Shown one piece after another: positions 1 to 44,769 of a DNA stretch of 44,769 nt (position 1 is the stretch's first letter; every line of letters starts with the position of its first letter). This DNA comes from a virus (Duplodnaviria > Heunggongvirae > Uroviricota > Caudoviricetes). Both the position numbers and the translations under genes were made by a program. Below the pieces are notes generated by a model. It did not search any database. It was given only the letters and a program-made list of their open reading frames with translations, and had not been told where the DNA came from. The stretch is taken from IMG/VR virus record IMGVR_UViG_2909298281_000003; one strand, written 5' to 3'.

Positions 1-3349
<3,349 letters not shown>

Positions 3350-5561: not shown

Positions 5562-5924
5562 TTAACGACCTGCTGCGCGGAGTTTTCCGTCAGGTTCACC
5601 GGCAAGAGTCAGTAATTGTCCCTGGTCTTCCTGCAGAATAGTCAGGCGACCACCGCGATTGACATACATCGGCGTTTCGGTGGTGTCTTCTTCGGAAATT
5701 TTCCCGCGGTTAGTCGGGCGAACATATGAGAGTTTGTGTTTGATTTTCACACGGTTCTCATCAAACGGTTCGATTTCCAGATTGAGTGAGACCTTCCCTT
5801 TGGTTTTCGTGTTCATCACACCGGAAGCGACTTCACTGAGAACTGCGCCGATTTTGGTTTCAAATACGCCGCCGTCCAGCTCCCCGATAAATGCCTGCAC
5901 ATCAGTACTGCGTTCGCTAGCCAT
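5562..5924 (-). CDS. yfdP: Early-left operon protein, YfdP-like (120 aa from internal ATG MASERS...)
   Basis: GAGGAG ribosome-binding site 7 nt upstream of ATG at 5924-5922; the upstream 55 codons of the track ORF look non-coding. Confidence 0.55.
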   Translation of the reverse strand: MASERSTDVQAFIGELDGGVFETKIGAVLSEVASGVMNTKTKGKVSLNLEIEPFDENRVKIKHKLSYVRPTNRGKISEEDTTETPMYVNRGGRLTILQEDQGQLLTLAGEPDGKLRAAGR

Positions 5925-6394
5925 TTTGCTGCTCCTCATCATATCGACCCTGCAAGGTCGGTTGGTTTCTCCACAAAACAGAGAAGAACACCTGCGGTGG
6001 CAGCCGCCCGGATGGATTGGGTTATGAGCCCGTCGTCCGGTGATGCTCTTCTCTGTTTTGCAAAAAAGGACGGTACCAGCCGGAAGCAAGGGTACAAACT
6101 GGTACCGCCAGGACTACACACAGCATAAAGTTGTGGTGCCGGGTGCCTCCCGGTGCCTGGCGAAGGTTGCACACTAGGCGGGTGGGTATCCACAGAAGGT
6201 CGACTGTCAGCCTCAACCTTAACCCGCGTGCGCTGAGCCGCATTCACCACAACGCTAAGGATTCTCTCTGGTTGAAAATACTTAGCTGTTATGTGCCTGC
6301 TTTTAGCCACATCAGGCGAGGTGGACCTGGTTATTCCCCAACAACAAGGATTCGGTTAATCTGGATATCCCCAACAACAATAAGAGTATTCAAT

Positions 6395-6910
6395 GTGATC
6401 GCTGAATTAACGGCAGCAATGACGGCTATTCGTGAAACAGCCCAGATTGCAAAACTAATGAACGAGGCAAAAACTCAAGCTGAAGTAAATGCGGCTATTG
6501 GTGAGCTGAACTCAAAGCTTGCGTCTATTCAGCGCGAATGCGTGTCTCTCGTTGAACTGGTGGGCTCTTATCAAGAAATAAATGCTTCTCTCAAAGCTAA
6601 AATTGCAGAATTCGAAAACTTTGAGGCTCAGACGGAAGGCTATATCCTTAACCAACTTGAGTCGGGTACTTTTGTATACTCGAAGGAGGTAATCGTGAAC
6701 GGTGGCAGCATAACCATGCATCTTTGCCCAAAATGTTTTGGACAAAAGATAGTATCGATACTTCAACCATTCCCAGTTAGCGAAGATGAGCTTTTTCATA
6801 AAAGCAGATGCCTCCACTGTGAAAATAAGTTTCTGATGAATAAAAATCCGGATTACGTATCGCCTCCATCCATTGAGGAGTTGTCCAGAAAACTTAACGG
6901 CAATCTGTAG
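6395..6910 (+). CDS. Hypothetical coiled-coil protein with a C-terminal CxxC...CxxC zinc ribbon; candidate immunity-region accessory (moron) gene
   Basis: Coding-like sequence starts near GTG 6395 or ATG 6419; motifs CPKCFGQK and CLHCENK; followed by an intrinsic terminator; opposite strand to the early-left operon. Confidence 0.5.
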   Translation: MIAELTAAMTAIRETAQIAKLMNEAKTQAEVNAAIGELNSKLASIQRECVSLVELVGSYQEINASLKAKIAEFENFEAQTEGYILNQLESGTFVYSKEVIVNGGSITMHLCPKCFGQKIVSILQPFPVSEDELFHKSRCLHCENKFLMNKNPDYVSPPSIEELSRKLNGNL

Positions 6911-6950
6911 ATTACTACTGTTGTGGATATCCAGATTGTTAAAGAGCTAA

Positions 6951-6972: not shown

Positions 6973-7058
6973 GTTGCTAACGAATCATCCTGGACTTCAT
7001 ATGCCCCAGGCGGCTACTTCGTGGGCGTCCTGCCTGTTCGTTATCTTTGATATAAAAT

Positions 7059-7121
7059 CTAACTTAACTTAGTTATCATGGCAAGAGAAAACACCAAACT
7101 TTTCTTAGTTCGGTGCCTTAG
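7059..7121. promoter_or_regulatory. OL-like operator cluster, with presumed leftward promoter
   Basis: Repeated half-site palindromes CTAAC-N4-CTTAG (7059-7072), CAAAC-N4-CTTAG (7095-7108) and a further CTTAG at 7117-7121, just 3' of cI. Confidence 0.45.
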
Positions 7122-7137: not shown

Positions 7138-7764
7138 TTAGAGTTCGTATTGAACTCCTTTGACTACACCAATGATAAGGCAATTACCATTGATAGGGAT
7201 GTTGGGATACCGAGGATTTAATGGCACTAAAAACTTTTGAGGGCCATCGATGACTAATTTTTTTACTGTAGCTTCGTTTGTTCCATCAAGTCGAGCGATG
7301 ACTATTTTTCCATGACGAGGTTCTGCATCTGGATCTACAATCACTGTTGCGCCTTCTGGTATTGTTGGGAGGCCATTAGGGTTAGTCATGGAGTCACCTT
7401 TAACCTCTAATGCAAATGAGTTATCACCAACCTTTAATGATGTATCTACCCACTTGTCCACTTCACTAAACACTTCTGCTGCCCTGCACTCAGTAAACTG
7501 CCCAGCCTGAACCCACGATATTACAGGAACTCTGCGCATGTTTGTGACGAGTTTGCCTTCAAACTCAGCACCATAAAGAATGTAATCTATTGACGTATTG
7601 AAGAACTTCGCTAATTTCGAAAGTGCCTCCCCGCCAGGGGTATTGATGTCTTTCTCCCAGTACCCCACAGCAACGTCGCTTACTCCACAAAATTTACCCA
7701 ATTCTTTCTGGGACGTTCTGGTAACTCTTCTCAGAGCTTTTATACGCTGACCAACCGTTTCCAT
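7138..7764 (-). CDS. cI: CI-type prophage repressor (HTH_XRE N-domain plus S24 LexA-like peptidase C-domain)
   Basis: 208-aa ORF; Ser/Lys dyad context (GDSM ... VKKL); divergent from cro. Confidence 0.85.
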   Translation of the reverse strand: METVGQRIKALRRVTRTSQKELGKFCGVSDVAVGYWEKDINTPGGEALSKLAKFFNTSIDYILYGAEFEGKLVTNMRRVPVISWVQAGQFTECRAAEVFSEVDKWVDTSLKVGDNSFALEVKGDSMTNPNGLPTIPEGATVIVDPDAEPRHGKIVIARLDGTNEATVKKLVIDGPQKFLVPLNPRYPNIPINGNCLIIGVVKGVQYEL

Positions 7765-7786
7765 AGGAGCACCATTTCTTTAATTG

Positions 7787-7849
7787 CTAAGTAATCTTAG
7801 TTTTTATTGACCAAAGATAGATTTGTAATTAGCATCTAACAAAACTTAG
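7787..7849. promoter_or_regulatory. OR-like operator/promoter region (PRM/PR) between cI and cro
   Basis: Perfect palindrome CTAAGtaatCTTAG at 7787-7800 and CTAACaaaaCTTAG at 7836-7849; TTGACC -35-like at 7807-7812; GGAGGG ribosome-binding site before cro. Confidence 0.5.
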
Positions 7850-7861
7850 TTTGGAGGGCGT

Positions 7862-8062
7862 ATGACAACTGACGATATCGAAAGCTACTTCGGCAGTATT
7901 GAGAAAGTTGCTGCTTTTTTCGGCATAACAACTGAAGCCGTTTATCAGTGGCGAAACCGTCCGGGCCAGTTAATTCCAAAAGGACGTGCAGCAGAAGCTG
8001 CATATAGAACTTGCGGACGGTTGCCATTTAAACCTGAGCTTTATGAAAAATCTAATGGATAA
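7862..8062 (+). CDS. cro: Cro-like HTH regulator (66 aa)
   Basis: Small HTH ORF divergent from the repressor, ribosome-binding site GGAGGG. Confidence 0.75.
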   Translation: MTTDDIESYFGSIEKVAAFFGITTEAVYQWRNRPGQLIPKGRAAEAAYRTCGRLPFKPELYEKSNG

Positions 8063-44188: not shown

Positions 44189-44769
44189 TGGCATTCAGAA
44201 TGAGTGAACAACCACGGACCATAAAAATTTATAATCTGCTGGCCGGAACTAATGAATTTATTGGTGAAGGTGACGCATATATTCCGCCTCATACAGGTCT
44301 GCCAGCAAACAGTACCTATATTGCACCGCCAGATATTCCGGCTGGCTTCGTGGCTGTTTTCAACAGTGATGAGTCATCGTGGCATCTCGTTGAAGATCAT
44401 CGGGGTAAAACGGTTTATGACGTGGCTTCCGGCGACGCGTTATTTATTTCTGAACTCGGCTCATTACCGGAAAATGTTACCTGGTTATCGCCGGAAGGGG
44501 AGTTTCAGAAGTGGAACGGCACAGCCTGGGTGAAAGATGCAGAAGCAGAAAAACTGTTCCGGATCCGGGAGGCGGAAGAAACAAAAAACAGCCTGATGCA
44601 GGTAGCCAGTGAGCATATTGCGCCACTTCAGGATGCTGTAGATCTGGAAATCGCAACGGAGGAAGAAACCTCATTGCTGGAAGCCTGGAAAAAGTATCGG
44701 GTGTTGCTGAACCGTGTTGATACATCAACTGCACCTGATATTGAGTGGCCTGTAATACCTGAAGTTTAA
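44188..44769 (+). CDS. tfa: Tail fibre assembly protein Tfa
   Basis: 193-aa ORF, start overlaps the stf stop (TAATG); ends with a stop at the window edge. Confidence 0.85.

Follow-up and report, generated by a model that had tools for sequence, protein, structure and literature searches.

The stretch considered here (positions 5925-6394) lies in a lambdoid prophage (IMG/VR record IMGVR_UViG_2909298281_000003), the whole of whose 44,769 analysed nucleotides (nt) is referred to as the window; over 5925-6394 it shares 99.8% identity with Escherichia phage PhiR49_1. On the left the stretch is bordered by yfdP, which is read on the minus strand from an ATG at 5924-5922, and on the right by a plus-strand gene (6395-6910) encoding a coiled coil followed by Cys-x-x-Cys pairs (CxxC...CxxC), for which a family-model search gave no match. 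Further to the right are the gene of a LexA/S24-type repressor (cI; 7138-7764, minus strand) and cro (7862-8062), beyond which lies the rightward operon. The GC content is 0.56-0.585 over 6000-6300 as against 0.41-0.45 in the flanks, and comparison with relatives places mosaic breakpoints at about 5944, 6110, 6325 and 6379. In complete Escherichia coli genomes, 1324 of 5426 (about a quarter) contain a match spanning 80% or more of the query, i.e., a near full-length copy, while current annotation gives the stretch as a hypothetical protein, a pseudogene or nothing. An earlier note had described it as GC-rich and non-coding, with an inverted repeat, a GC palindrome and two direct repeats, all of which are present, and had proposed that it could encode a structured RNA (an antitermination element or a small RNA, sRNA) or hold regulatory sites. 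The present analysis concerns the RNA read leftward from the stretch, which is very probably a non-coding, structured leader of the operon transcribed from the early-left promoter (PL), related to the STnc100 RNA family.

The minus strand of the stretch does carry an open reading frame (ORF) of 123 codons (5939-6310), overlooked when the earlier note stated that no frame is protein-like, and its homologue in the e14 prophage of K-12 is named ymfH in RefSeq. Nevertheless, the frame failed every coding test applied, so that the statement holds in substance. Among the 21 distinct homologous stretches compared, copies more than 95% identical differ by 1-nt indels (in the U-tract at 6067 and by an insertion at 6300), the e14 copy has further deletions at 6148 and 6095, and the copy of phage ST64B has a 20-nt insertion, which falls in the loop of the terminator described below. 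Variable sites are distributed over codon positions 1, 2 and 3 as 19/22/18, with no third-position excess, and searches of Pfam and NCBIfam with the ORF product found no matching model. Furthermore, the frame runs across the terminator and the Rfam family match. The E. coli copy identical to the window is recorded in RefSeq as a frameshifted pseudogene, a call which results from a single extra U, since the tract after the terminator has six U in the window and five in most relatives. Judged by these comparisons, the ORF is not coding, and neither a conserved frame nor a coding pattern of substitutions was found for YmfH.

Read on the minus strand, the segment 6324..5925 is an untranslated leader between the cI/PL region and yfdP, about 400 nt of which are folded. 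The RNA 6300..5926 has a predicted folding energy of -156.5 kcal/mol (z = -6.7 against dinucleotide shuffles, with none of 100 shuffles as stable). Folding energy cannot choose the strand, because the plus strand over 6055-6330 folds comparably (-97.8 versus -100.5 kcal/mol); three features fix the minus strand, namely that the covarying helices contain G-U pairs, that the terminator ends in a U-tail when read on it, and that the operon runs in that direction. These results uphold the proposal that the stretch is non-coding and gives rise to a structured RNA, encoded in the same direction as the leftward operon.

The conserved module includes a core domain of 124 nt (6253..6130, minus strand; hereafter 'Y-type'), recognised by the Rfam match and by covariation and comprising five helices and a pseudoknot. 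It is closed by P1, formed by GUUGUGGUG (6253-6245) and CACCACAAC (6138-6130), and continues with the junction AAU (6244-6242) and P2, a GCG/CGC stem (GCG-GCUCAG-CGC, 6241-6230, reading GCG-GCUCAGCGC...). P3 pairs GGGU (6225-6222) with ACCC (6183-6180), P4 pairs GCCUAGUG (6179-6172) with CGCCAGGC (6162-6155), and P5 is the hairpin CCGGG-AGGCA-CCCGG (6153-6139), to which the palindromic GC segment reported near 6136-6165 corresponds. The core pseudoknot joins AAGGUUG (6220-6214), located inside P3, to CAACCUU (6169-6163) in the loop of P4.

Comparison across prophages, which the earlier note had suggested as a check along with a covariance-model search, revealed the compensatory base changes expected of a maintained RNA fold. 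For P1, in 19 Y-type sequences, 86% of the cells are paired and five pairs have both sides changed, a score reached by none of 500 shuffles and approached by no slid register. P2 and P5 are invariant among Y-type sequences, though the invariance of P5 is partly due to the selection of sequences by the P5 motif. As MAFFT misaligned the variable middle of the core domain, P3, P4 and the core pseudoknot were assessed with an anchored-stem script and shuffles. For P4 the best stem anchored immediately 5' to P5 was sought, and for the pseudoknot the best complementarity between the loop of P4 and the 35 nt that follow P2. P4 and the pseudoknot were found in 15 of 15 lineages with quite different sequences; the combined shuffle (Fisher) p values are 5e-14 for P4 and 3e-8 for the pseudoknot, figures that overstate independence because the lineages are related. 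P4 reads GCCUGGUG/CGCCAGGC, GCUCUGG/CCAGAGC, GAACGUAAU/GUUACGUUC or GGCAGUAGUUG/UGACUACUGUC in different lineages, and the pseudoknot AAGGUUG/CAACCUU, AGACUGACAAA/UUUGUCAGUCU, CAGUUAA/UUAACUG or UGGUUAU/AUAACCA. P3 likewise varies and stays paired (GGGU/ACCC, GGAA/UUCC, GGUGA/UCACC, GAUGA/UCAUC). Across about 15 lineages it is nonetheless plain that P1, P3, P4 and the pseudoknot have changed in sequence with their pairing kept. In the K-12 e14 copy (locus L001, 4125-4346) the otherwise invariant P5 has lost one loop base and one stem base, which is consistent with decay in a defective prophage.

The core is flanked by further structured elements on the same strand. At the 5' edge of the conserved module stands a small H-type pseudoknot with an A-rich third loop (CCAC-CUC-GCCUG-AU-GUGG-CUAAAAG-CAGGC, 6324-6295), the motif of which occurs in 8 of 21 Y-type upstream regions and in 7 of 420 shuffles; its variation falls in the loops and spares the stems, and locus L129 has the compensating stems CCACC/GGUGG and GCCC/GGGC. 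It is followed by the octamer CACAUAAC (6295-6288), which may pair alternatively with the 5' strand of P1, and by the predicted hairpin P0 (GCUAAG...CUUAGC, 6286-6254), the strands of which covary in loci L081, L178, L242 and L235 as read by eye from the sequences, with no statistics attached. A 'boxA-like' sequence, GUGCUCUUUCC, directly 5' of P1 in several lineages was rejected as such, for it covaries as the 3' strand of P0.

Downstream of the core, an intrinsic terminator (6109..6062) consists of an 11-bp stem (GGCGGUACCAG / CUGGUACCGUC(C)), a 19-nt loop and six U (6067-6062); an automatic terminator scan had missed it because of a loop limit of 8 nt. Among relatives its stem is kept, its loop is variable (20 nt longer in ST64B) and its U-tract has 5 or 6 residues, and it aligns with the terminator part of the Rfam STnc100 model. 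Next comes a long hairpin of 87 nt (5974..6060) with a 19-bp outer stem and a branched top bearing a conserved GACGGGCUCAUAACCCAAUCCAUCCGG; this is the inverted repeat noticed previously, the arms of which (5974-5997 and 6037-6060) span 24 nt with 83% complementarity. Both e14 and ST64B retain the stem, in ST64B with a compensatory replacement of one G-C pair by A-U, and the module also occurs upstream of yfdP in mEp460, Stx2c phages and cdtI. In the 5' untranslated region of yfdP the long hairpin may serve as an RNase III site or as a stabilising element. A conserved motif GUGGAGAAACC (5974-5964), a small hairpin CGACCUUGCAGGGUCG (5960-5945) and the Shine-Dalgarno sequence GAGGAG of yfdP (5937-5932) complete the leader, and a GUGGAG motif recurs 3' of the core or the hairpin in other lineages.

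The family relationship of the core was obtained from Rfam. In a permissive scan the sole meaningful match was STnc100 (RF02076), covering 6283..6060 of the minus strand with 41.1 bits and an E value of 3.5e-7, and the architecture of that family (model positions 1-206) is found in the window in order: closing helix, GGUGAAU junction, 3' hairpin CCGGGAGGCACCCGG and terminator. At gathering thresholds the only family listed for the whole window was IS009, a full-length match of 229.5 bits at 44531-44729 (plus strand). Other Y-type copies score 29.2-41.9 bits with the STnc100 model, as against 88.8 bits for a canonical copy from a Klebsiella phage. An invariant 22-mer, CACCGGGAGGCACCCGGCACCA, is present in more than 120 viral contigs, and its 18-base sub-string CCGGGAGGCACCCGGCAC in many Enterobacterales (Kosakonia, Citrobacter, Enterobacter, Salmonella, Raoultella, Pantoea, Erwinia, Rahnella and others). 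Canonical ('X-type') copies read GGUGAAUCCCCCUnnGCGGnGGGG and Y-type copies, including that of the window, GGUGAAUGCGGCUnAGCGCACGCGG, both of which contain the 22-mer. On this comparative evidence the core domain is a divergent, unannotated relative of STnc100 and PasD. Canonical copies also occur in tandem arrays of two or three with a spacing of about 250 nt, each with a terminator (L184, L019, L058, L182 and others). In the window no second copy of the core, such as would correspond to putR or nutR, was found within 3 mismatches of the 20-nt core motif.

A third type ('Z-type'), reading GGUGAAUGCGCAGGCUGAUGCGCG ... GCCGGAGAUCAGCACCGGUCACCAC, fills the PL-leader slot in mEp460, where P1 is as in the window and the terminator and long hairpin downstream are near-identical (97.6% over window positions 5900-6110). 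It is present in more than 120 further viral contigs and had no match in Rfam at E <= 0.1. The mEp460 copy (L250, 2857-2722 on the minus strand) and those of loci L251-L370 have a very variable middle between two conserved halves (GGUGAAUGCGCAGGCUGAUGCGCG and GCCGGAGAUCAGCACCGGCCACC). GCUGAU in the loop of the second helix is the complement of AUCAGC in the loop of the last one, and L366 shows one compensatory pair. ARAGORN reports a tRNA-Pro-like element (581-666) nested in the variable middle of the Z-type RNA of L313 (527-750), and the Z-type middles of L344 and L326 also have a T-arm-like GGUUCGAUUCC.

The positions of the three types were counted for copies with at least 1.5 kb of upstream sequence. 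Among 35 assessable Y-type copies the upstream gene was cI-like in 26, a lambda-type Q in two and neither in seven; the corresponding figures were 0, 30 and 117 for canonical copies and 28, 9 and 33 for the Z-type. None of the counted copies of any type had the cI-like or Q gene on the opposite strand. Wherever a Y-type copy has a recognisable repressor, the cI-like gene lies 480-1200 nt upstream on the same strand, and yfdP/yfdQ or xis/int follow downstream, again on the same strand. In ST64B, cI and a terminator are followed by PL with its operators, and a leader of 350 nt, in which no gene intervenes, leads up to the core; behind the core come a terminator, the long hairpin and a yfdP homologue. 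A canonical Klebsiella phage copy starts at a near-consensus late promoter PR' (TTGAAA-17-TAAATT), and two terminators precede the holin gene. The window copy, lying between cI/PL and yfdP, does not share the late-region location of canonical STnc100 (near Q, lysis genes or stx). From these counts the family is thus seen to be tied to the leaders of PL and PR' operons. The P1-like phage SJ46 (L124, 2506-2630) has a Y-type core 27 nt upstream of tciA (tciABC-dnaB operon) with no terminator between, and about 440 plasmid records match parts of the core, most of them P1-like phage-plasmids of about 95 kb. ST64B (L125) also has adjoining Rfam matches to C4 antisense RNA and isrK at 909-1097 (minus strand) near sb40/sb41, an immI-like antirepressor control region.

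The promoter assigned to the leader lies on the far side of the plus-strand gene. An operator-like repeat (CTAA-N6-TTAG) occurs three times, twice in OR between cI and cro (7781-7806 and 7830-7855) and once at 7053-7078. The operator copy CTAACTTAACTTAG within 7053-7078 is overlapped by a candidate leftward promoter, TTGCCA (7084-7079) and TAGATT (7061-7056) with a spacing of 17 nt, which is the only leftward promoter-like site in the region. We infer that the site at 7084-7056 is PL/OL, which agrees with the earlier argument that a leftward transcript from the OL side would have to cross the stretch. Directly after the cI stop and just before the candidate -35 element, a minus-strand hairpin (CACCGAAC...GUUUGGUG, then UUUUCUCUU; 7085-7120) probably terminates the repressor transcript.

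Some 100 nt beyond the candidate PL in the direction of transcription, the minus strand carries a hairpin, AAGCGCCCUACAGGACGCUU (6968-6949), followed by an exact rrn-type boxA, GCUCUUUAACAA (6947-6936), which is the rrn consensus and has no other exact copy in the 44.8-kb window. The absence of an evident N-like antiterminator, remarked upon in the earlier note, stands insofar as inspection of the ORFs between PL and yfdP showed none that is N-like; this boxA, located beyond the stretch then described, is nevertheless part of the same transcript. Of 37 Y-type cores, 14 have the hairpin and boxA at a distance of 700-950 nt on their upstream side, with the inserted gene differing from case to case; none of 177 canonical STnc100 copies is preceded by the pair. 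Read on the plus strand, the hairpin beside boxA is the terminator of the inserted gene. The plus-strand gene (6395-6910), which looks like a moron, is bracketed by an inverted repeat of 26 nt (arms 6358-6383 and 6912-6937, 85% complementary), the arms of which are kept in relatives carrying other inserted genes. Since the arms remain with different genes between them, it seems that, on the leftward transcript, boxA is followed by a hairpin whose loop accommodates the inserted genes. The two direct repeats of TCCCCAACAACAA just upstream of the gene lie at 6335-6347 and 6368-6380, the second one base away from its earlier placement, and are kept where another gene is inserted. The segment 6330-6394 falls outside the conserved RNA module, and the repeats in 6335-6380 may be DNA sites or part of the hairpin flanking the inserted gene.

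Taken as a whole, these observations are best explained by a leftward leader of the PL operon with an attenuator that releases an RNA like STnc100 or PasD, an account to which we assign a probability of roughly 0.55. Upon loss of the repressor, transcription would begin at the operator-overlapped promoter near 7056-7084; the transcript would pass the hairpin and boxA, cross the inserted plus-strand gene in antisense and then form the folded leader of about 400 nt. Probably, boxA and the host Nus factors (NusB and NusE) would shield the untranslated RNA of about 1.1 kb from Rho, as the established role of these components suggests. The terminator 6109-6062 would then act as an attenuator, with stopped transcripts releasing a compact, stable RNA with a hairpin and U-tail at its 3' end, which could act in trans, and with read-through transcripts expressing yfdP to int; STnc100, PasD and the lambda RNAs 6S and PreS originate in this manner at the heads of phage operons. 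The combination of attenuator and released RNA in particular remains tentative and has somewhat less than an even chance of being correct. In e14, ymfH, xisE and intE are induced with the SOS response (PMC11228462), and induction of the homologous stretch there fits transcription from a repressor-controlled PL.

Several points weigh against this account. The STnc100 score of 41.1 bits falls under the curated gathering score of 47 bits. Within 5900-6400 a consensus scan found no promoter and inspection by eye gave weak candidates only, so a discrete small RNA would need either processing of the PL transcript of about 1 kb or a promoter that escaped detection. Only about 5 of 15 Y-type lineages have a terminator directly after the core, while the others run into a ribosome site, some with a P1 of 20 bp; therefore, the conserved job of the core cannot depend on an adjacent terminator. 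Complexes formed on rrn-type boxA are known to counter Rho rather than intrinsic terminators, and would therefore not account for read-through of 6109-6062. The window copy itself has a C-to-T substitution at 6175, seen as G-to-A in the RNA, by which it loses a P4 pair that at least 16 other loci retain; the predicted stability of the core falls with it from -58.0 to -52.4 kcal/mol. Lastly, so well conserved a pseudoknotted core is more usual in RNAs with a protein or ligand partner than in sRNAs that act by base pairing, and it suggests a specific binding partner. In a wider and more speculative extension of this point, the X-, Y- and Z-types might form one unrecognised superfamily of compact RNAs held by pseudoknots or kissing loops, marking the PL leaders (after cI) and PR' leaders (after Q), in which the invariant core would bind a conserved host or phage factor (RNA polymerase/Nus, a nuclease, or a defence or regulatory protein) and the RNA would serve as a regulator or decoy instead of an ordinary base-pairing sRNA; we consider this doubtful, with perhaps some merit.

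Under an alternative reading, the core would be a cis-acting processive antiterminator like put of phage HK022, its RNA contacting polymerase (alone or with boxA-recruited Nus factors) and carrying it through 6109-6062 and later terminators to int. The core does occupy the place of putL, or of nutL and N, between PL and the first gene of the left operon, always co-oriented with it; no N-like gene was seen between PL and yfdP on inspection of the ORFs, with no N profile search run; and a compact fold with invariant nucleotides is what would be expected of a binder of a conserved host machine. The many Y-type copies that lack an adjacent terminator and stand directly before genes, as that of SJ46 does 27 nt before tciA, also fit action at a distance. 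The core nevertheless has neither sequence nor architectural similarity to putL (two stem-loops, about 70 nt), and homology was rejected on finding that the putL region shares none of the conserved motifs. Canonical and Z-type relatives moreover lie between PR' and its terminator tR', downstream of lambda-type Q, where, with an autonomous antiterminator, the lysis genes would become constitutive and Q control would be defeated. Furthermore, HK022, with a lambda-like leader, and lambda-type Q function without such an RNA, and in ST64B the core is also preceded by a hairpin resembling a terminator. Antitermination of this kind is therefore unlikely, and the earlier suggestions are supported in part, the structured RNA being what holds. 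Lambda-type Q (PF03589) is also unlikely to use the RNA as a cofactor or site, given that HK022 has a PF03589 Q and a lambda-like leader without the RNA; the Q of the window belongs to PF06530, and the late region of the window is without such an RNA.

Alternatively, the core might be a sensor (riboswitch-like, or a leader that binds a protein), in which the 5' strand of P1 would pair either with CACAUAAC or with CACCACAAC and thereby set termination or the translation of yfdP. The pseudoknotted multi-helix fold with invariant junction nucleotides, its location in a 5' leader followed by a terminator or ribosome site, and the competing upstream partner of P1 in the window (with CACA(C/U)AAC in several lineages) are in keeping with this idea. 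By inspection, however, no convincing overlap of P1 with the terminator of the riboswitch style, and no coupling to the Shine-Dalgarno sequence, links the fold to an output; the anti-P1 octamer is absent from the ST64B and Y2 lineages, the minimum-energy fold of the 276-nt leader already forms P1, and no riboswitch family of Rfam was matched. A sensor is thus quite improbable. A likeness of the five-way junction to tRNA was also entertained and then abandoned.

It might also be argued that the stretch matters mainly as DNA, providing promoter or regulator sites for the plus-strand gene and a recombination boundary of lambdoid modules, with the RNA folds incidental. The direct repeats at 6335-6380 just upstream of that gene, the 26-nt inverted repeats that bracket it and the mosaic breakpoints near 5944, 6110, 6325 and 6379 would suit such a role, and an activator site is conceivable where no sigma-70 promoter consensus was found. 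DNA sites, however, cannot explain compensatory changes that keep helices, nor G-U pairs, which are strand-specific, so that this explanation has little probability and could hold for 6330-6394 only. That the stretch encodes the small protein YmfH, as annotated in K-12 e14, is most improbable: the 123-codon frame and its RefSeq name speak for it, but the frame-breaking indels among near-identical copies (one of them flagged as frameshifted), the 19/22/18 spread, the absence of a Pfam or NCBIfam family and the course of the frame through the terminator and RNA match tell against it.

The reading of the stretch as a PL-operon leader with an STnc100-like RNA has consequences beyond this prophage. 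Recognition of a structured leader RNA corrects the annotation of ymfH. As an annotation the structured RNA is itself new: it diverges from a known prophage RNA family, stands in an operon setting that is new for that family, and belongs to a wider family of which existing models cover only a part. The STnc100/PasD family thereby gains early operons as its second context, together with sequence types overlooked by present models, and the covariation-supported pseudoknotted core argues for a specific binding partner. Moreover, a testable handle is provided on the control of the leftward operon (int, xis) in lambdoid phages without N of the e14, SfV, ST64B and mEp460 kind.

Among known systems, lambda nutL and the rrn antiterminator resemble the window in having an exact boxA (GCUCUUUAACAA) beside a hairpin early in the PL transcript, the order of hairpin and then boxA being that of rrn rather than lambda. 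They differ in that the boxA lies about 700 nt upstream of the stretch and in that neither an N gene nor a boxB-type 15-nt hairpin was identified. With putL and putR of HK022, the window shares a cis-encoded structured RNA just downstream of PL in a lambdoid phage without N, and, close to the 5' end, a small element of the pseudoknot or triplex type (PMC9378689). Unlike put RNA, which comprises about 70 nt and two stem-loops (PMC9378689), the window has a five-helix domain of 124 nt in a leader of about 400 nt and no second copy in the PR operon, and relatives of its RNA occur in Q-controlled late leaders. Lambda 6S, StxS and PreS are likewise made where a phage operon begins, and a terminator in the leader gives them their 3' end. 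Some of them bind Hfq and act in trans, Hfq binding having been reported for PreS (early-left operon) and 6S (PR' leader) of lambda (bioRxiv 10.1101/2024.10.31.621285). Their sequences are unrelated to that of the window RNA, and none is known to have a conserved pseudoknotted multi-helix core.

The closest comparison is with STnc100, which has been judged to be related to the sRNAs PasD1 and PasD2 of enteropathogenic E. coli, all of them being placed near Q and lysis genes (bioRxiv 10.64898/2026.05.13.724894), while PasD is an Hfq-dependent sRNA detected on Northern blots (PMC8550237). The window differs from these RNAs in its second helix (GCGGCUCAGCGC versus CCCCCUnnGCGGnGGGG) and in a rearranged middle; Y-type copies lie in the PL leader downstream of cI, whereas for canonical copies the place is the late region, after Q or stx. 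Canonical copies, unlike that of the window, often have a near-consensus promoter of their own. Nevertheless, the closing helix (..GUGGUG / CACCAC..) and the GGUGAAU junction are common to both, the 3' hairpin CACCGGGAGGCACCCGGCACCA is invariant in both, a helix loop pairs with an upstream strand and a terminator hairpin with its U-tail comes next in each, and both are carried by prophages of Enterobacterales.

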